DNA from: Promethearchaeota archaeon
GTDB taxonomy: Archaea; Asgardarchaeota; Thorarchaeia; Thorarchaeales; Thorarchaeaceae
Length of the DNA: 64,000 nt
NCBI GenBank assembly: GCA_014728035.1
Contig: WJMJ01000059.1
Location: forward strand, 128,001-192,000
Direction of reading: 5' to 3'
How positions within the stretch are numbered: the first letter of the stretch is position 1; each line of letters opens with the position of its first letter. The notes under the pieces were generated by a model. The model made no database searches. It saw only the letters and a program-made list of their open reading frames with translations, and was not told where the DNA came from. Positions 11,563-32,864 of this stretch are shown one piece after another. The translations under genes were made by a program, and so were the position numbers.

Positions 11563-12963
11563 ATGGTAAGAGAATCTTCTATTGTATATCGAACTGTAAC
11601 GGATGTGCGTGGTCCATTAGTCATTGTAGATAGCACACATAACGTGGCCTATAATGAAGTTGTTAAGATTCGAGCCCCTAATGAGGAACTTCTCACTGGT
11701 ACAGTTTTAGAAACTGGACGCGGCAGAGCAGTTATTCAGGTTTTTGAAGGTACAAGTGGATTAGATACAGACCTTACAGCTGTACGGTTTACTGGGGAAA
11801 CAATGAAACTTCCAGTATCAACAGAAATTCTTGGGCGTATTTTGGATGGCTCTGGGAATCCTTTAGATAAAGGTCCACCCTTAACAGCCGAAGACCACTG
11901 GGATATCTATGGGTCTCCAATAAATCCCTATGCACGACAATATCCTCGACAACCCATTCAAACTGGTTTATCTGTTATTGATGGTTTGAATACTCTGGTG
12001 CGAGGCCAAAAACTACCAATATTCTCTGGATCTGGTCTTCCCCATAACCGAGTTGCAGCTCAAATAGTACGACAAGCAAAGATTCCAGGAGAAGAAGGCG
12101 ATTTTGCTATTGTTTTTGCTGCAATGGGTATAACTGCCACCGAGGCTCAGTATTTTATGGAATCTTTTGAAGAAACTGGTGCACTTGAACACACTGCATT
12201 GTTTCTGAATCTTGCAAATGATCCTGCCATCGAACGGATTATCACACCTCGTGCAGCTTTGACTGCTGCTGAATATCTTGCATATGAATCAGATATGCAC
12301 GTGCTTGTCATTCTGACCGATATGACCAATTATGCAGAGGCACTTCGTGAGATAAGCGCTGCTCGGTCCGAAGTCCCTGGAAGGCGAGGTTATCCTGGCT
12401 ATCTATATACTGACCTGAGTCTTATCTATGAACGGGCTGGCAGAATCAATGGTAGAAAAGGAACCATTACACAGATGCCAATTCTATCTATGCCTCAGGA
12501 TGACATGACCCATCCAATTCCAGACCTTTCTGGATATATCACTGAAGGGCAGATGATTGTGAGTCGACCAATACACCGAAAAGGCATTTATCCTCCAATT
12601 GATCCAGGACCATCTCTAAGCCGACTTATGAAAGAAGGAATTGGTGAGGGTATGACTCGTTTCGATCACAAAGAAATTCAAGCTCAACTATACTATGGCT
12701 ATTCTGAAGGTCGAGACCTTCGAGACCTTGTAGCTGTTGTGGGATCTGAAGCACTAACCGATCGGGATCAAAAATATTTGCGATTTGCAGATCGATTCGA
12801 AAGCGAGTTCATAAACCAGGGCGAATTTGAAGATAGATCATTCGAGACTACTCTTGATATCGGATGGAACCTCCTAAGTGAGTTTCCTGAACGTGAGCTT
12901 AAACGATGTGACCCTTCTACCATACAATGGGCAAAAGAACGTGGTGTCTACAAGATTCTCTAA
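11563..12963 (+). CDS. atpB: A/V-type ATP synthase subunit B
   Basis: [43 protein letters not shown]; likely ATG at 11563. Confidence 0.95.
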
Positions 12964-13484
12964 CCGCTCTGATTAAGTGACTCCTCCAATTTTTGGATGA
13001 AAAACCATCGAGTAGCTTGTGAGTAAGCATACCCATCTAGATTAACTAGATTACCAAAGACCTTTTTCCAAGCTTTCCAGAGAATCAGAAGGTGGTGATG
13101 GGGCAGCATGAAATAACAATTCAATTCATTTAGTCTTTTTAGTGAAAGAAACTGGCCTAGTCTTGCTGTAAATTTATCTGCTTCACCTTCAATTTTCCAT
13201 AGCGCCATAGGTGGATAGTCGTAATGTGGATAATCAAATCTGTCATAGGGAATTATGGTCATTGGTTCTGAGATTATGAGAATCTGCGCTTTTTCCTCAA
13301 ACCTGTGAAACATTTGCTTATGGCTGTGTGATTGCTGTATTGGCTTCTTTTTCGAACATGGGACAAAGAGAATTGGTTTTCCATTTGGTTTCCATGTTTC
13401 AAGAACCGATTGTGTGAATTCAGTTACTTCAGCGTTATCAAATCGATGCGTCACTCTACTAACAACTGATGTTTGAACTCTCAT
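12960..13484 (-). CDS. Stand-alone ArcS catalytic-core-like (DUF5591-like) protein
   Basis: [16 protein letters not shown] and [10 protein letters not shown]...YPHYDYPP match the PCSxxKPYxxSxSH / SxP...P...YD signature of the archaeosine synthase core; same strand and just downstream of dpdA. Confidence 0.7.
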
Positions 13485-13524: not shown

Positions 13525-14742
13525 TTAAAATTCACCAAGAGTTGTTTGCTTTACTGGGTCTGGCTCGTCAAGGATTTTTTGAAGTTGCTTATAGAATACC
13601 CACGTATTGTGAAATCCTCTTCTTCGATTTCTATTGTTCCCTCTAAATATAATCACTTCAACTCCCACCCTTTTACAAATAGCACAATCACATAACTCCC
13701 ACGGTCGATCTTTCAATGTCTTTAGATATTCATCAGCATGGCTTTTCTTTGCATCAATAATAGAATCGTACCATAAAATTGCTTCAAGGACTTCATCTAG
13801 GTCTGCCTTGTTCCTTCCATACATTCGCATGAGTCCCATGCAACCTTCTTCCATTGCCTCAAGCTCTTCGAGCTCGATGTTTCCTGTTCCAAGAATTTTT
13901 TTGGCTTTCGGGCTTCTATCACTTTGAGGTATTCGTATGGCGGCATAGTTGTTCCCATCTGGTAGCATGTAATTGCTTCTAGATCCTAACCATGCTCTTC
14001 TCAGGTGTGATGCAGAATCGAATGAGGTTATACCCAATTTTTGCATTTCTCTCATTGCGCTCAATCGAGCAACGCCAAAGAGATGAACACCTACTCTTTC
14101 ATGCTCACTCAGCACTTCGTGTATCGCACGTAGCATGTCTAGAACTGTTGAAGTAGGTGATCTGGTAAGTCCGCCAATAGCAATGTATTGATATCCTATA
14201 TCCAACAATTCCTTGACTGATTCTTTGTAAGATGTTGCATCCCATCCCTGAGCAGCACCTACCGGAACATAATCAAATCCTTTTGAATCATGAACCTGTA
14301 GAAACTTCTCGGCATTTTTTATAGTGATATCATATCGGTTGTGTTTTTGTTCTTCAAATTGCTTAACAATAAGATGGTCAACGCTTACCCCATAATCAAA
14401 ACCTAATTTGTGATAGTATTCTGCAGTTTCCTTGGTTTTATACGGTGGCACATCTTCTTTGATGTATCCATATGCCCCACAATCTCCAAATACAGGTCCA
14501 TCAAATCCCAGATATTCATGTATTCCTACATTCGTTATACGTTTCATGTTTTTCTTGTTTTCTTCAATTTTAGCTTTTGAAACCAGTATGCCATCATATG
14601 GTGGTGAGCTATAAATCTCATGGGCTGTAACCTTGATTCCATCAGTTGGTTCATCTTCGATAAAATCGTAATTCAAATCAACACGATCATCCCACCAAGG
14701 AATATAGTAGTTCATTCTATTAGGAATCCCAAATCTTGACAC
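13525..14742 (-). CDS. dpdA: DpdA-type tRNA-guanine-transglycosylase-like enzyme (7-deazaguanine DNA insertion family)
   Basis: HEIY..PPYDGILVSK, GDCGAYGY, FDYGVSVDH, AQGW, YIAIGG, HLFG, SFDS, AIRIPQ, Zn site CDCAIC, IFRGNNRNRRRGFHN; no PUA domain. Confidence 0.85.
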   Translation of the reverse strand: MSRFGIPNRMNYYIPWWDDRVDLNYDFIEDEPTDGIKVTAHEIYSSPPYDGILVSKAKIEENKKNMKRITNVGIHEYLGFDGPVFGDCGAYGYIKEDVPPYKTKETAEYYHKLGFDYGVSVDHLIVKQFEEQKHNRYDITIKNAEKFLQVHDSKGFDYVPVGAAQGWDATSYKESVKELLDIGYQYIAIGGLTRSPTSTVLDMLRAIHEVLSEHERVGVHLFGVARLSAMREMQKLGITSFDSASHLRRAWLGSRSNYMLPDGNNYAAIRIPQSDRSPKAKKILGTGNIELEELEAMEEGCMGLMRMYGRNKADLDEVLEAILWYDSIIDAKKSHADEYLKTLKDRPWELCDCAICKRVGVEVIIFRGNNRNRRRGFHNTWVFYKQLQKILDEPDPVKQTTLGEF

Positions 14743-14844
14743 GTATTTCTACACCTTTTTTTGTCCATGAATTATTTAATGAGTAATGTACTTATACTCG
14801 CCAGAAAGTGACCTTAAAAGAGTTCTACATTGTATGTGATTGTT

Positions 14845-15546
14845 ATGGATATTTGTGTTATTGGAAGCTGTGGAAAAAAGAAACAGACATCTAGCCCAGA
14901 AGCTCCTACTTGTAATCAATTACAGTCGAAAGAAGATCTTGCTATTTGGAGAGAAAGACTTCAGGATTTAGTTGTTCCAGCACGTGATATGTACGTTGGT
15001 AATCAAAGCAGAGAACTAGGGAAGGGTGTGGACCTTTTAAGAACAATTGATAATGTTTCAGTTGAGTATTTCATCATTTCCGCAGGATTTGGACTTCTTG
15101 CAGAAAAATCTCTTGTACCACCATATGAATGTAGTTTTTCTACGATGGGGTCAAAGGCAATCAAGAAACGGGCCAGTAATCTATCAATCGATTCAGATTT
15201 CCTATCAATATGTGAAAAGAAGTACGATTTGCTCTATCTCGCGCTTGGTAAGAAGTATCTATATTCCCTAGGGTCTTCTTGGCAATCCGTGTTCGATGGA
15301 ATATTAGTCGCATTTGATTCGAAATTGGACTCTCCAGATGCAATTATTATTCCCGCAGGCAATTCGACTGTTAAAGCATTTTCCCGCCATGGGCACAAGG
15401 TCCATGGAGCCGCTGGATTCAAAGGTGATTTGTTGAGAATTCTTGCTGACTATGCATTGAAGCAAGAAGACAGCTACAATGAAGTTTCCGCTTGGGTTGA
15501 ACCTTTCTACCTAAAGCAGACTATATTCTCTTTTGCTGGTTTATAG
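14845..15546 (+). CDS. DpdC-like protein (YaaA/DUF328-related fold)
   Basis: CGKKK, PARDMYVG, IISAGFGLL, PPYECSF motifs of YaaA-like proteins; divergent from dpdA; ATG at 14845 (ORF opens at 14830). Confidence 0.65.
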   Translation: MDICVIGSCGKKKQTSSPEAPTCNQLQSKEDLAIWRERLQDLVVPARDMYVGNQSRELGKGVDLLRTIDNVSVEYFIISAGFGLLAEKSLVPPYECSFSTMGSKAIKKRASNLSIDSDFLSICEKKYDLLYLALGKKYLYSLGSSWQSVFDGILVAFDSKLDSPDAIIIPAGNSTVKAFSRHGHKVHGAAGFKGDLLRILADYALKQEDSYNEVSAWVEPFYLKQTIFSFAGL

Positions 15547-16410
15547 TTATGAAACTTTGACATTGTGTTTTTGTGAATCTGCAGTTTCTCGAATCCCTGA
15601 GTCACAGTTGTCATAGGATACTTTCGTTTCAATTGAGTATGCTTTAGATTCCTTTCCTATCTTGAATTCTAATAGAATTTCAACCTCATAGGGCTCAAGT
15701 TGTAATGAAGTCTTAAGAAAATCGACAACCAATACCCCTTCTACGACTTTGTACCCTTTTGCTTTTTTCAATTCAATTTCAGGTGTACTTTCAAAGGTTA
15801 CTGATATATTCTGATATGGATGAATGAATCTATTAACAAGCTTACCTGTTACTTGAAGTATTTCATCAGGCTTTAGTTCACCTTTAGAATCAAGGACTAT
15901 CTGTGGAGGCAGTGGTGTTCCCTTTTCCTTCTTTCTACCTCGTCTATATGATCTTGTTGACCTTACATCTTTTGGAAGCTCTTCTTTCCCCTCGTAAAGT
16001 CCTTCTTCGAGTTTCTCGGGTTCTTCATCGAATGTAATTAATGTACTAAATGTAGCTATCTTGACACTATTAATCTTGTTAGATGTGATGCCGGCATCTT
16101 CTTGAGCTTCTCGGATGAGCTCTATCATATAATCGGTACAAACCTTGAGTTTGTACTCTTTTAGCTTCTCGTCTTTTTTCATGATTGATTTATATTTATC
16201 ATGAAACTTCAAAATCTCTCTACCGACAGGTACTTTTTCTTTGTTTTTTTCAAACCATGCTTTTCTTGTAGTTTGTTTGTAACTGAACGGTCCAAATGAT
16301 TTACACGCCTTTGACCAAGCTTCAAGATCAAGTTTTTTGATTTCTGGCATCAGCATGTCTCTGATGTATTTTTTCATTTCTTTAGTCAGAACATCTTTTT
16401 TTGTTGGCAC
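15547..16410 (-). CDS. Hypothetical protein, Lys-rich helical N-terminus and probable beta-sandwich C-terminus
   Basis: 287-aa ORF with GGAG upstream of GTG; no family recognised. Confidence 0.6.
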   Translation of the reverse strand: MPTKKDVLTKEMKKYIRDMLMPEIKKLDLEAWSKACKSFGPFSYKQTTRKAWFEKNKEKVPVGREILKFHDKYKSIMKKDEKLKEYKLKVCTDYMIELIREAQEDAGITSNKINSVKIATFSTLITFDEEPEKLEEGLYEGKEELPKDVRSTRSYRRGRKKEKGTPLPPQIVLDSKGELKPDEILQVTGKLVNRFIHPYQNISVTFESTPEIELKKAKGYKVVEGVLVVDFLKTSLQLEPYEVEILLEFKIGKESKAYSIETKVSYDNCDSGIRETADSQKHNVKVS

Positions 16411-16990: not shown

Positions 16991-18517
16991 CTATTGAATA
17001 AATTTCCATGGCAACGGACCTTTCAGCCTCTCTCGATTATTGGCAATCGCAAAGAATGGAAGCCCTGTTTCCTTTTCTGCCCTTCTCCAACCTCCTAATC
17101 CTCCATACGATGCTGCAATCTTAATTATTTCCCCCATTTTTTTGTCACCCAAAGAAAGTGATGCCTGTATTCTTGCATGTCTCGGATCCAGTGTTTCAAC
17201 GGTAACCCTAGGAATATTGTTAATTCCTTGTTCTAGTGTCCGTATTTTTTCTCGTATGATGTAGATTGGTGATTGAGCATTACGTTCGAATCTTGTATTA
17301 GCTTTTGGAACAAAAGGATTAGCACTAATAGTAATTTTACCTGGAAAGATTTCTGCAATTTGTTTTGATAAATTGGTGATTGCAAGTATATCCTTTTCAT
17401 CTTCGTATGGAAGTCCAATGATGAAATATAGCTTGATTGAATACCACTTTGCGTCCGCTGCAAGTTTTACTGCCTTGAGAATAGCTTCATCCGTTAAACC
17501 TTTTCCCAAAATATTTCTTAGACGACTTGATCCGGTTTCAGGAGCTATTGTTAGAGTTCTTTGCCCCCCTTGCATCAACAAATCTAGAGATTTTCTGGAT
17601 ATTGAATCAGCTCGGAGTGACGGAGCTGATATTTCCAAATCTCGTTCTATACACCATTCAACTAGTTGTTCAAACTCTGGCAAGTCGCCCAAAGTTGGAG
17701 CAATGAAAGCTACTTTTCTTACTGGTGTTTCATTGATTCCTTTTGTGATAATCTCTTTCAATTTTTCAAACGAACGAAGTCTTCTGGGCCTGCATATATG
17801 TCCAACAAGACAAAATTTGCATGAATGCCCACAACCTCTCCCCACTTCTACAAGTAGTGCTTTTCCAAATACAGGTTCTAACTTTGCGCCCTCTGGAACA
17901 TCTGGGATAATCTGTTTTGTAGGATGGAACAGCTCATCTAAGTTTTGCATAATTTGCCGTTTGATTGGTTGTTTCTTTATACTTGGCACATATACACCTT
18001 GCAATTCTGCCATCTTGCCTAAAGCATCTTGTCTACTTTCAGAATTCAGTATACAATCAGCTATGCTATGAAATACCAAGTCCCCTTCTCCAATTACGAA
18101 AGCATCAATGAATAGCTCGTATGGACATGGGTTTGCACTTACTACGGGACCCCCCATAATCACAATTGGGTCTTCATTCATTCGATTGGCAGCTATATGT
18201 GGAATGTTTGCTTCAGATAGCATTTGTACAACATGAAGAATATCTTCTTCAAACGAAAGAGAAAACCCAATTAAATGATTATCTTTCAAATGTCTTTTTG
18301 TTTCAACAGATCTGATGGGAGAGTATGTATCATACCTAAAATATCGTTCACACGATATGTTCTTTCTTCTGTTCAAGCTTGAGTAGAAAAGATGTGTTGC
18401 TAAGCTTGTCATACCCGCACGATAGGTTGATGGATAACAATACCCAATCAGAACATCAACATCTCGGATGTCTTTAACTACGGTATTGATCTCGGTCAAA
18501 GATAGTTTTCCCAACAC
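16991..18517 (-). CDS. Radical SAM protein with B12-binding-like N-terminal domain
   Basis: YPSTYRAGMTSL, GGPVVSANP, GEGD, EVGRGCGHSCKFC (CxxxCxxC), APETGS, KLYFIIGLP. Confidence 0.88.
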   Translation of the reverse strand: MLGKLSLTEINTVVKDIRDVDVLIGYCYPSTYRAGMTSLATHLFYSSLNRRKNISCERYFRYDTYSPIRSVETKRHLKDNHLIGFSLSFEEDILHVVQMLSEANIPHIAANRMNEDPIVIMGGPVVSANPCPYELFIDAFVIGEGDLVFHSIADCILNSESRQDALGKMAELQGVYVPSIKKQPIKRQIMQNLDELFHPTKQIIPDVPEGAKLEPVFGKALLVEVGRGCGHSCKFCLVGHICRPRRLRSFEKLKEIITKGINETPVRKVAFIAPTLGDLPEFEQLVEWCIERDLEISAPSLRADSISRKSLDLLMQGGQRTLTIAPETGSSRLRNILGKGLTDEAILKAVKLAADAKWYSIKLYFIIGLPYEDEKDILAITNLSKQIAEIFPGKITISANPFVPKANTRFERNAQSPIYIIREKIRTLEQGINNIPRVTVETLDPRHARIQASLSLGDKKMGEIIKIAASYGGLGGWRRAEKETGLPFFAIANNRERLKGPLPWKFIQ

Positions 18518-21089: not shown

Positions 21090-23381
21090 CTATTTCTTAT
21101 ATTGTGAGGTAAGCAATCGTCTTATTGTTCCTGCGATTTTAGGCCCAACACCTTTCACTCGTTGAAGTTCTTTTTTATCCGCATTGAAAATGTATTCAAG
21201 AGTACCAAATTCTGAAAGAATTGCCCTAGAGGTTACTGTATCTACTCCTGGGAATCCGGATAAAATGTATTCAAGAGTTTCTGAATCACTACTTCCCATT
21301 TCACCCGTTCTTGTTCTGAGAGTTTTCTTTTCACTTATTTGTTCAAGGTGTGCTAATCTGTACAGTACTTGAGCTGTTTCTTCTGGGTTTCTAGTCCAGA
21401 GAATTGGAATTTGTATCCTTATTGCAATGGATGCCAGTGCGCCATATATTGAGGCAGGATTTACTCCACGGAGTCCGATTATCTGCTCACCTTCAATGAT
21501 AAGAACTGGTCTTTGATAAGCTGATCTGAGTGAACTCAACTGAGAAAACAATCGACCATCTATCATTGATTGGATGAAATCGTTACTCTCTTTTCTTTCA
21601 ATGGCTACATCCTCTGAAGCAATGTAATCTCCAATCTCAAGTGCTTCTCCCTGGATGATTACTCCTAGTCTTGCGAGTTCTCGTGCAACACCTGTAGATA
21701 ATTCTCGTGAATCAACTATCATTGTAATTTTATCGTTCCCTTTTTCTGAACTAAGCGGAGTGTCTCCTGGAGAAATAGCGTCTTCTTTTTCTTCTACAAA
21801 GTCCTCCAAACTTGTTTGGCTATCATCTGTTTCTTTTGCATCTTCTAGAGCTGCTGGCATCTTTTTCAGTTTCCGAATCACACTCCAATGATAAAACTCG
21901 TCATGGGTATCTTTTGCAACAAAAATGATTACTTGTCCTGGTGAGTGTCTCCCTGTTCTTCCTCTCCTCTGAATATATGGAACCACTGATGGTACACAAT
22001 CATAGAAAACAACTAAATTGCATTCTGGAATATCAAGACCCTCCTCTCCTACTTGAGTTGCAACTAAAATATTGAACTCATTATTCCTGAATCCTTGTAG
22101 TACCTCTACTTGCTTCTTTTGAGTGAATCCCTTGTCCGATCCTTTTGAGCTCTGTCCTACAAATCTACTGACACGAGCATCTTCAAGTTGTTCTAGGGTT
22201 TCTGTAACTTCTGCTGCAGTGTCTCTGAATCTTGTGAACACCAAGATTCGTGAATCTAAATCATTTGAAAGCTGCTCACTTACTATTTCAAGAATCGTAT
22301 CCGCTTTTGGATGACGATATCCCTTTGATACCAAAGCGTCCAATAAGTTCTCAAATTGATGGAATTCAGCTCGGGAAACTAAATCTTGAACTCCCTTTGA
22401 GCTTCTCTTATTCCTTATTTCTTCATACATTCCCTGAATATATCTCAATGTTGGTGTAAGCCCTTGTGTGCCTACAAACTCGAGCAAGTGTACAATTCGA
22501 AGTGATGCTGTTAATTTCTTAATCAATAGAAACAGATGTTTTGGTGGTTTCGTATATGTTCCAATCTCCTTGCGAATCTGAGCTTGAGTTTTTAGAATGT
22601 CTTTTTTGCTTATCCGACGGCTTGACCCTACGGAATATCCATAATTTCTAATGGGTGATGTATATGATTCTAGCAAATCATACAGAATATCTCGAAGAAC
22701 TTCCACCTCTGGTGGGAGTATTATGTATCTGATATCACTATCGATTGATACTATGTATTTTTTCACATCTTCACTTTCTGCAGTTCGGACCTCTACTTTA
22801 TTCAATCGCAAGTTTTTGCGTACTTGTCTTATTTGATCTGCTTCATGTCCAGGAGATGCTGTAAGCCCGAGCGAAAGCTGGTTTCTGCCTTGTTGCTCAT
22901 AGAGTTCTGCGATAAATGTATATGCATAATTCCCAACACCTCTATGAGCTTCATCAAAAACAATTAGTGATACATCATTCAAATTATAGCTATTTTGAAC
23001 TAAATCATTTTGGAGCGATTGTGGTGTCATCACAGCTATTTTGACTGTATTCCACGAAGCTCTTCTATTTTCAGGACCTTCTTGACCCGTAAGACATACA
23101 ATCTCTTCGTTTCCAAGTGTAAGCACTCTTTGTAAGAATCTCGCTTGCTGGTCTACTAAAGGTCTAGAAGGAGCGAGAATTAGCACTTTTGAGTCTGGGT
23201 ATTCTACAAGTCTTTTAGCTGCTAACAGTGCGGCAATGACAGTTTTTCCTAGACCCGTACTGAGAACAATGAGAGTGCTCTCTTTAGCAGCACTTTCTGC
23301 TAAATTCATCTGATACTCTCTATACTCTATACTCTTTGGTTTGATCAAGCCCATTTCGACATAGTGTACTGGTTTTACCAT
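21090..23381 (-). CDS. hef: Hef helicase-nuclease (FANCM/XPF-like)
   Basis: TGLGKT, DEAH, TASPG, QRRGRTGR, ERCC4 nuclease VDSRE/ERKE, HhH; internal PIP-like QTSLEDFV. Confidence 0.93.
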   Translation of the reverse strand: MVKPVHYVEMGLIKPKSIEYREYQMNLAESAAKESTLIVLSTGLGKTVIAALLAAKRLVEYPDSKVLILAPSRPLVDQQARFLQRVLTLGNEEIVCLTGQEGPENRRASWNTVKIAVMTPQSLQNDLVQNSYNLNDVSLIVFDEAHRGVGNYAYTFIAELYEQQGRNQLSLGLTASPGHEADQIRQVRKNLRLNKVEVRTAESEDVKKYIVSIDSDIRYIILPPEVEVLRDILYDLLESYTSPIRNYGYSVGSSRRISKKDILKTQAQIRKEIGTYTKPPKHLFLLIKKLTASLRIVHLLEFVGTQGLTPTLRYIQGMYEEIRNKRSSKGVQDLVSRAEFHQFENLLDALVSKGYRHPKADTILEIVSEQLSNDLDSRILVFTRFRDTAAEVTETLEQLEDARVSRFVGQSSKGSDKGFTQKKQVEVLQGFRNNEFNILVATQVGEEGLDIPECNLVVFYDCVPSVVPYIQRRGRTGRHSPGQVIIFVAKDTHDEFYHWSVIRKLKKMPAALEDAKETDDSQTSLEDFVEEKEDAISPGDTPLSSEKGNDKITMIVDSRELSTGVARELARLGVIIQGEALEIGDYIASEDVAIERKESNDFIQSMIDGRLFSQLSSLRSAYQRPVLIIEGEQIIGLRGVNPASIYGALASIAIRIQIPILWTRNPEETAQVLYRLAHLEQISEKKTLRTRTGEMGSSDSETLEYILSGFPGVDTVTSRAILSEFGTLEYIFNADKKELQRVKGVGPKIAGTIRRLLTSQYKK

Positions 23382-31654: not shown

Positions 31655-31829
31655 TGATTAATTCCACCAGAGGGAAGTTGTAATGTTGGCTTTTTTGACC
31701 GTCTTGTGCAGTTATTATAAACCTACCTAAATCACCACATTCGGCTCTTGTATCTATTTTCCATGATACTAAAATATCTCAATTCATATATGTAATGAGA
31801 CCAGTTGCCATTATTGTAGAGTGATTCAT

Positions 31830-32864
31830 ATGGGCACGTCACTGAGCGATATAATCAAGGCCGATACAGTTTCTCTGAATGATCTCTCTGGCCGGAAGAT
31901 AGCTATTGATGCATTTAATACGCTCTATCAGTTTCTGTCTTCAATTCGTCAACCAGATGGTACTCCATTGATGGACCGAAAAGGTCGTATTACAAGCCAT
32001 CTATCTGGCTTGTTCTACCGTAGCCTTAATCTATTAGAAAAAGGCATTTTTCCCATTTATGTCTTTGATGGAACATCTCCTGAATTAAAAGAAGATGAAA
32101 TTGAACGCAGACGAGAAATTCGCAAGACCGCAAAAGAGGAGTGGGAAACTGCAAAAGCAGAAGGCAGAATTGAGGATGCGCGGAAGGCGGCACAGGCCAG
32201 TTCCAGCCTGACATCTGATATGGTTGATGAGAGTAAAGATTTGGTCCGTGCACTTGGCATTCCTGTCATCCAGGCACCTTCGGAAGGAGAGGCGTTAGCA
32301 GCCCAGATGACACAGGCAGATATGGTGTGGGCAAGTGCAAGTCAAGATTATGATTCACTTCTCTATAAGTGTCCTCGTACTATTCGAAATCTTTCTATCT
32401 CTGGCAGAAGAAGAATTTCCCGAACTAAGTCTTACAAGACAATAAGTCCTGAAGTAATTGATTTAGACTTGAATTTGCGCCTTCTAGAAATATCTCGTGA
32501 ACAATTAATTGATATTGCTATTCTTGTTGGAACTGACTATAATGATGGGGTTCGCGGGGTTGGTCCAAAAACAGCACTCAGGCTCATAAAGAAACATGAC
32601 TCGATTGATAAAATAGTTTCAGAGGGCATTAAAGAGATTGATTTTCCCTATGAGGAAATTAGAAATATCTTTCTGAACCCTCCTACAGCAGATATAAGTG
32701 AACCAGAGTGGACCAATCCTAATTATGAGCGAATCAAAGAGTTATTGGTGGAGCAACATGATTTCAGTGAGAACAGAATCAATAGTTCATTGGAACGATT
32801 AAGAGATGCACAACAAGAATTAGCTGATAAAGCTTCACAAAGTTCTCTGACCGATTTCTTCTAA
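31830..32864 (+). CDS. fen: Flap endonuclease 1
   Basis: AIDAFNTLYQFL, APSEGEA, SQDYD, GTDYN, C-terminal PIP box QSSLTDFF. Confidence 0.96.
   Translation: MGTSLSDIIKADTVSLNDLSGRKIAIDAFNTLYQFLSSIRQPDGTPLMDRKGRITSHLSGLFYRSLNLLEKGIFPIYVFDGTSPELKEDEIERRREIRKTAKEEWETAKAEGRIEDARKAAQASSSLTSDMVDESKDLVRALGIPVIQAPSEGEALAAQMTQADMVWASASQDYDSLLYKCPRTIRNLSISGRRRISRTKSYKTISPEVIDLDLNLRLLEISREQLIDIAILVGTDYNDGVRGVGPKTALRLIKKHDSIDKIVSEGIKEIDFPYEEIRNIFLNPPTADISEPEWTNPNYERIKELLVEQHDFSENRINSSLERLRDAQQELADKASQSSLTDFF

Follow-up and report, generated by a model that had tools for sequence, protein, structure and literature searches.

Base exchange of the DpdA type is known chiefly in phages and in a single bacterial restriction-modification system, which relies on a poorly understood ParB-like ATPase. 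In eukaryotes a DNA-modifying enzyme, DNMT1, is brought to PCNA by a PCNA-interacting peptide (PIP) box and re-marks newly replicated DNA. We analysed a 64,000-nucleotide stretch of a Thorarchaeota genome (Promethearchaeota archaeon, GenBank assembly GCA_014728035.1, contig WJMJ01000059.1, positions 128,001 to 192,000 of the forward strand), hereafter the window, which carries dpdA, a gene with a GTG start encoding a DNA-guanine transglycosylase homologue of 405 aa (13525..14742, minus strand; NCBIfam NF041059). The protein finishes in QTTLGEF. From sequence comparison, the best explanation, to which we give a probability of about 0.75, is that this tail, borne on a short flexible linker, is a PCNA-interacting peptide which docks DpdA on PCNA. 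DNMT1 differs from the window DpdA in having an unrelated fold, in transferring methyl groups rather than exchanging bases and in carrying its motif at the N-terminus rather than the C-terminus. Both the enzyme family and the class of docking peptide are known, and their combination is undescribed in the literature searched, where we found no paper linking DpdA or 7-deazaguanine with PCNA, the sliding clamp or a clamp-binding motif.

In the closest described enzyme, DpdA of Salmonella enterica Montevideo (PDB 7UI4; PMC10164549), Asp95 is the acid/base, Asp130 is responsible for base recognition and Asp256 is the nucleophile. It belongs to the same family as the window DpdA, with the same Asp triad and zinc site, and the same exchange of guanine for preQ0 in double-stranded DNA is presumed. 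However, the Salmonella protein ends 8 residues past the core, has no tail and requires the ParB-fold ATPase DpdB, whereas the window DpdA has the PIP-type tail; the archaeal genome yielded neither DpdB nor any ParB-fold protein, dpdD-K were not found nearby, and the partners are instead a stand-alone ArcS-like protein (mini-ArcS) and a DUF6884 protein. The Salmonella residue His181 corresponds to Gln165 in the window DpdA.

Archaeal PCNA clients (FEN1, PolB, PolD DP2, RFC-L, RNase HII, NucS and NreA; PMC4929162) carry Q-x-x-L-x-x-F at the C-terminus on a flexible linker, as the window DpdA does, and PDB 1RXM shows PCNA in complex with the archaeal PIP consensus peptide KTTQSTLDSFFK (PMC4929162). 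Unlike these clients, the window DpdA is a base-exchanging DNA-modification enzyme and its motif is missing the second aromatic residue. The clients covered in a review are polymerases, RFC, Fen1, RNase H2, NucS, Nre and TIP, with no DNA-modifying transglycosylase among them (PMC4929162). Bacterial beta-clamp motifs of the forms QL[SD]LF and QLxLxL are found in Pol II, Pol IV, Hda, MutS and transposases (PMC12309361, PMC4549789), and the same peptides end the DpdAs of a bacterial clade that is sister to the archaeal one, whereas the window tail is of the archaeal/eukaryotic PIP type; DpdA is not named among beta-clamp clients in the literature searched. In viruses (Vibrio phage nt-1 and haloviruses; PMC6884629) DpdA is coupled with an ArcS-type protein, as here, and this pairing correlates with dPreQ0, dG+ or dADG in DNA (PMC6884629). 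Unlike the viral pairs, the window locus is chromosomal.

The C-terminal tail of DpdA

Reading of the codons places QTTLGEF at residues 399-405 of DpdA (13528..13548, minus strand), an exact match to the initial annotation of this DNA, which had reported that the protein ends in this motif after the linker DEPDPVK. The linker (residues 392-398; 13549..13569, minus strand) is acidic and proline-containing, shows no conservation in our alignment A2 and connects the last core helix to the motif. The C-terminal sequence is ...LDEPDPVKQTTLGEF and the stop codon occupies 13525-13527. The canonical residues present in the tail are Q399, L402 and F405. Two parallels drawn in the same annotation were also found in the proteins named. 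FEN1 (31821..32864, plus strand; XPG_N and XPG_I domains), which serves as a reference PCNA client in the window, ends in the PIP box QSSLTDFF (32838..32861, plus strand), and Hef (21090..23381, minus strand) contains the PIP-like motif QTSLEDFV (residues 522-529; 21795..21818, minus strand) in an acidic inter-domain linker, with the helicase domain on one side and ERCC4 on the other. Of the window's open reading frames (ORFs) of at least 100 aa, FEN1 and DpdA alone end in Qxx[LIMV]xx[FYWH].

We used AlphaFold2 on alignment A2 to model the protein (predicted local distance difference test (pLDDT) 88; predicted template modelling score (pTM) 0.85). The last helix spans residues 369-392 and residues 393-405 form coil, with pLDDT dropping from 72 to 56, and the model shows the tail as a floppy, disordered extension past this helix.

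The tail is conserved in archaeal orthologues, which had been put forward as a check on its function, with exceptions in three Asgard families of our set (f22, f28 and f30, considered below). In 17 Thorarchaeota-type orthologues (60-84% identity) Q and L are present without exception and the final motif position holds a hydrophobic residue in 16 (F in 12, L in 3 and I in 1), while the 7-8 residues preceding the motif are unalignable (alignment A2). When Heimdall-like orthologues are considered together with those of Thorarchaeota (43-84% identity), the linker is scrambled and Q, L and the terminal aromatic persist. Families f1, f8 and f10 keep PIP-type ends (QTxLxDF, QKLLSDFL, KQTKIxNF[FI], EQLTLDDFF and VKLDQYF), those of the Heimdall-like f8 and f10 sitting behind linkers of 30-100 aa, and full two-aromatic PIPs (QFLLDDFF and QLTLDDFF) are found in Heimdall-like relatives. 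In the genomes of f1, f8 and f10 carriers FEN1 ends in QQRRLDSFF or QT[SA]LDDFF, and the f8 and f10 DpdA tails resemble these. This conservation of a PIP-type tail supports the view of DpdA as a DNA-bound, clamp-associated enzyme.

Motif counts across the genome

We also counted PIP-type motifs across the whole genome (4.33 Mb, 3801 crude genes, 97.9% complete), where "terminal" means within 3 residues of the C-terminus. A strict form of the motif, Q[STAMP]x[LI]x[DEQ][FYW], was found 36 times over 1.24 million positions, and 9 of these occurrences were terminal against 0.44 expected (Poisson P ~1e-9; 3801 genes). The nine proteins are a Y-family polymerase, PolD DP2, FEN1, Nre, PolB, DpdA, a DUF72 protein, a DUF2797 protein and a C39 peptidase. 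Five of these are classic PCNA clients (PolB, PolD-DP2, FEN1, the Y-family polymerase and Nre) and, because the terminal hits are mostly of this kind, a terminal motif is near-diagnostic of PCNA clients in this genome. The tRNA enzymes TgtA and ArcS of the same genome are not among the nine. The window DpdA tail shares its flavour, QTxLxDF, with the FEN1, PolD and Nre tails of its own genome, and PCNA itself is encoded there by a 251-aa ORF with a PCNA_N match (contig C9).

Several other proteins bearing the motif are worthy of note. The DUF72 protein (G000 C44:58021-58884, plus strand) ends in QTRLDQF and the DUF2797 protein (G000 C103:27350-28249, minus strand) in QTGLSEFV; with tails of the FEN1/PolB/PolD type, both are candidate new PCNA clients. 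PolD DP2 and PolB (G000 C25:40040-44980 and C161:23412-28400) both contain inteins (Intein_splicing and LAGLIDADG matches), and their tails are PIP-type (QTALTDYF and QPQLTEFME, respectively). Strict PIP-type motifs were also found at most 12 residues from the N-terminus of several proteins (among them G000 C140:2638-6699, C147:798-2417 and C65:30393-31688), where they are possible PCNA-binding motifs.

Bacterial relatives and core phylogeny

The nearest bacterial homologues are fusions of 670-730 aa, with DUF6884 N-terminal to DpdA. The tail had been expected to be absent from bacteria. A PIP is indeed lacking in the bacterial relatives, but at this terminus the sister clade bears the beta-clamp motif QLxLF, stronger sequence-level backing for clamp docking than mere absence would be. 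Many of the fusions end in QLSLF, QLDLF, QLTLF, QLPLF, QMSLF or QLxLxL (also QLELSLL), and penta- and hexapeptides of the QLSLF type are established bacterial clamp-binding motifs (PMC12309361; bioRxiv 10.64898/2026.05.27.728225).

As a control we took 200 unique tails reaching at least 20 aa past the core and scanned the last 20 residues for each motif in forward and reversed form, as well as in shuffled sequences. Q[LM]x[LMI]F gave 29 forward hits and none in reverse (shuffled sequences: mean 0.14, maximum 2), and the PIP pattern gave 27 forward and 2 in reverse (shuffled: mean 2.1). The bacterial and archaeal loci sampled were 80 of 508 GTDB relatives. Among named GTDB species representatives the PIP occurs in 5 of 6 proteins from archaea but only 1 of 71 from bacteria (Fisher P = 2e-6), and the beta-type QLxL[F..] motif in 15 of the 71 bacterial and none of the 6 archaeal proteins; kinship among the sequences inflates these figures. 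Loose PIP-like matches in cyanobacterial proteins were false positives within the last core helix and were disregarded.

Trees were built on core columns only, with the tail removed. In an IQ-TREE analysis (LG+C20) of 51 rows, a set which excluded family f22 and many near-duplicate cyanobacterial sequences, the Asgard PIP clade (99/98) was sister (90/85) to a bacterial clade (100/98). Inside the latter is a subclade of 17 rows (100/100), of which 15-16 are beta-tailed, spanning Pseudomonadota, Myxococcota, Planctomycetota, Chloroflexota, Acidobacteriota, Verrucomicrobiota and Bacteroidota. We consider this the strongest argument: sister clades from different domains each carry the clamp peptide of their own domain at the same terminus, which points to clamp docking as the function of the tail.

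It should be noted, however, that a number of observations weigh against PCNA docking or narrow its reach. QTTLGEF is a truncated PIP, in that the chain stops at the first aromatic without the second of the canonical Qxx[LIM]xx[FY][FY], and 5 of the 17 close orthologues finish in L, I or S rather than F. Two Asgard families, f22 (a distant paralogue, 26% identity) and f28 (fusion type), are without the tail, and a third, f30 (L023-L025), ends in QQLKLV, KQSKLV or QQLKLI; the f30 ends are unlike the FEN1 tails of the same genomes (QKTLFDWV) and closer to the bacterial QLxL[FV]. The cyanobacterial and Bacillota DUF6884-DpdA fusions are tail-less as well. The strict motif which gave the nine terminal hits took its form after the hits were known, the sequences counted are related and not independent, with the result that the counts overstate significance, and the sister placement of the two tailed clades is only moderately supported (90/85). 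The exceptions among f22, f28, f30, cyanobacteria and Bacillota indicate that clamp docking is not obligatory and would be a trait of a subfamily, not general to DpdA. As for the proposal in the initial annotation that PCNA recruits DpdA, the conserved PIP-type tail on a disordered end, matching the genome's own PCNA clients, speaks for it by comparison, and the exceptions and the truncated motif speak against it.

Alternative explanations for the tail

The alternative which survives best, although we regard it as unlikely, is that the tail binds some other partner, either a protein of the same gene module (mini-ArcS, the DUF6884 protein or an unnamed 287-aa protein) or a hub such as RPA. A DUF6884 protein is always found beside DpdA, as is DUF5591, the domain of mini-ArcS, in Thorarchaeota, and short hydrophobic terminal peptides suit many interfaces. 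However, Heimdall-like and Aenigmatarchaeota proteins without a DUF5591 neighbour retain the tail, and the cyanobacterial DUF6884-DpdA fusions hold the partner domain but no tail. The partner proteins have no matching conserved tail either: when mini-ArcS, the DUF6884 protein and the 287-aa protein were checked for a conserved PIP tail, none was found. The likeness of the motif to the FEN1, PolB, PolD and Nre tails of the same genome, and the presence of a beta-clamp motif instead in bacteria, also speak for a clamp over another partner.

Less probable still is an intramolecular or oligomerisation role for the tail, for instance as an autoinhibitory peptide or a dimer contact, with a merely coincidental likeness to a PIP. 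Enzymes of the tRNA-guanine transglycosylase (TGT) family do oligomerise, and the pLDDT of the tail (56-72) is moderate and not very low. Such a role is hard to reconcile with a linker which varies from 7 to ~100 aa among relatives, or with a motif which shifts to the new terminus upon domain addition, as in an Aenigmatarchaeota DpdA with an extra 185-aa C-terminal region and QPTLERFI at its new end. Two metagenomic Heimdall-like DpdAs (P0073 and P0100) also argue against it, as each has at its C-terminus a pair of PIP-like motifs in tandem, ~20 residues apart (K[SN]ILSF[LI] followed by K[DK]L[LI]EFL), and the domain-specific change to QLxLF would be left unexplained.

The reading of the tail as a chance or neutral sequence is effectively refuted by these comparisons: a loose motif, Qxx[LIMV]xx[FYW], does turn up often (923 times across the proteome), but the retention of Q and L in 17/17 orthologues next to an unconserved linker, the far lower counts in the reversed-motif and shuffle controls and the terminal enrichment (P ~1e-9) together reject it.

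Proposed mechanism and implications

Returning to PCNA docking as the preferred reading, we infer PCNA binding, replication coupling, the identity of the inserted base and the replacement of DpdB, and the likely mechanism is as follows. DpdA, a TIM-barrel transglycosylase, would replace guanine in double-stranded DNA with a 7-deazaguanine base. Q399, L402 and F405 would enter the PIP-binding pocket of the archaeon's single PCNA, and the tail would tether DpdA to DNA-loaded clamps at forks, Okazaki-fragment ends or repair patches. This tether would concentrate base exchange on newly made DNA and let the enzyme scan along it, and mini-ArcS (DUF5591) and the DUF6884 protein would probably process the inserted base further. 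DNA modification by DpdA in Thorarchaeota is, on the comparisons above, probably tied to the replication clamp. From the enzyme family and the clamp motif we infer that DNA, rather than tRNA, is the substrate of base exchange; separate tRNA enzymes, TgtA (504 bits) and ArcS, are encoded elsewhere in the genome.

A wider scenario is possible, though we find it doubtful: that this DpdA subfamily dispenses with a ParB-type DpdB or DndB and uses the sliding clamp as its loading and scanning platform, that the peptide was rewritten between QLxLF and PIP when the gene crossed between domains, and that Asgard archaea carry out a replication-coupled, maintenance-type 7-deazaguanine marking like that of PCNA-coupled DNMT1. 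If true, a clamp tail which switches with the host domain would explain how DpdAs without DpdB locate DNA, a non-methyl DNA modification would be tied to replication in archaea and bacteria, and a new enzyme class would join the PCNA and beta-clamp interactomes. It would also predict 7-deazaguanine bases in Asgard chromosomal DNA.

DpdB and ParB-fold proteins

The initial annotation had further suggested that the clamp stands in for a missing DpdB. The genome contained no match to the DpdB profile PDLC02811, in a search which had no positive control. Neither a ParB-fold match (ParB_N, PF02195; control positive in 10/14 genomes) nor an in-frame DGQ[QH]R motif, used as a proxy for DpdB, was found in the 97.9%-complete genome, and no cluster of DpdC and the restriction genes dpdD-K lies near the window dpdA. 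In five cyanobacterial loci (L054, L063, L083, L098 and L101) a DndB-like protein with a DGQQR motif, scoring 112-135 bits against PADLOC DndB, is encoded ~1-2.5 kb downstream of a tail-less DUF6884-DpdA, and this protein may act as a ParB-fold helper where the clamp tail is lacking. A DGQQR match in a further locus (L057) was not DndB. Over the bacterial loci sampled, DndB-like neighbours were found beside 13 of 56 tail-less but 0 of 15 beta-tailed DpdAs (one-sided Fisher P = 0.03, kinship ignored). These counts and the searches for DpdB and ParB-fold proteins hint that the clamp replaces DpdB. The idea stays conjectural, because at 43 of the tail-less bacterial loci both a clamp motif and a DndB-like neighbour within 6 kb are absent, and several Asgard lineages (f22, f28 and f30) are without a clear PIP.

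Identity and genomic setting of dpdA

In profile searches the window protein scored 424.1 bits against the DpdA equivalog NF041059, above the cut-off of 200, and 389.8 bits against the PADLOC DpdA profile. PDB 7UI4 aligns to residues 8-391 (E = 3.6e-75). D87, D122 and D242 of the window DpdA correspond to Asp95, Asp130 and Asp256 of the S. Montevideo enzyme, and the TGT-type zinc site CxCxxC...H is formed by C351, C353, C356 and H378; all of these residues are invariant in both alignments (A1 and A2). The closest matches to the protein, at 84% identity, come from Thorarchaeota metagenome-assembled genomes. The surroundings of the gene are chromosomal, with an adjoining A-type ATPase subunit, tRNAs on the contig and an even GC content of ~40%, and further neighbours are a DUF2095 protein, a radical SAM protein and a nucleoside triphosphate (NTP) transferase. 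The position beside the A-type ATPase operon is kept across Thorarchaeota. By these sequence features, the window gene is a chromosomal dpdA with intact catalytic Asp and zinc residues.

An origin from a provirus or genomic island was ruled out by the even GC content, the Thorarchaeota-wide synteny next to the ATPase operon and the single relative on a viral contig: IMG/VR holds 1 contig with a relative of this DpdA subfamily (L130), whose tail is of the beta type (QLKLF). The distribution of DpdA is patchy, with 25 carriers in a 400-genome sample of the phylum. In one genome of a related genus (G385), a 162-aa remnant (L035 1288-1773) retains only the C-terminal ~95 residues of DpdA, still ending in ...GQTFLGYFGQ, and adjoins a homologue of the 287-aa protein. 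The gene is thus decaying in that genus.

Neighbouring genes and preQ0 supply

The gene directly downstream of dpdA encodes mini-ArcS, a stand-alone DUF5591 protein of 174 aa (12960..13484, minus strand; Pfam DUF5591 and a partial NCBIfam ArcS match). It aligns to the genome's own ArcS (E = 3e-9) around the block PCSxxKPxxxSxSHK, which we take to be the ArcS signature motif. Mini-ArcS is found in the same Thorarchaeota-family genomes as DpdA (7 vs 6 of 86, the extra one being at a contig edge). This co-occurrence and the retained ArcS block suggest that preQ0, once inserted, undergoes further conversion on the DNA, to an archaeosine-like base for instance.

Genes related to 7-deazaguanine which are present in the genome encode TgtA, ArcS(-like) and QueD-like proteins. 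The 97.9%-complete genome yielded no true QueC, and two weak QueC (PP-loop) matches were the asparagine synthase AsnB (C65) and LarE (C95). Salvage may supply the preQ0, or else a gene in the 2% of the genome that is missing from the assembly. The radical SAM gene at 16991-18517 was considered as the archaeosine enzyme RaSEA and was found instead to encode a TIGR03960-family protein of unknown role; we kept it out of the module because of this family and because its synteny looks vertical.

Divergent from dpdA lies a gene for a DUF6884 protein of 238 aa (14830..15546, plus strand), which matches Pfam PF21818 at 28.5 bits, slightly below the cut-off of 30, and has weak similarity to the N-terminus of PADLOC DpdC (E = 6e-9). 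DUF6884 is a relative of YaaA and has been proposed to act as a base-flipper in DNA (PMC11701544). Its constant partner by adjacency is the gene for the unnamed 287-aa protein (15547..16410, minus strand), for which profile searches gave no family match and a protein-atlas search gave only low-confidence Ig-like and DUF11 leads. The pair was found in 31 of the 86 Thorarchaeota-family genomes, mostly without DpdA, and in Heimdall-like loci the two are fused as a single protein (L074 4389-5993).

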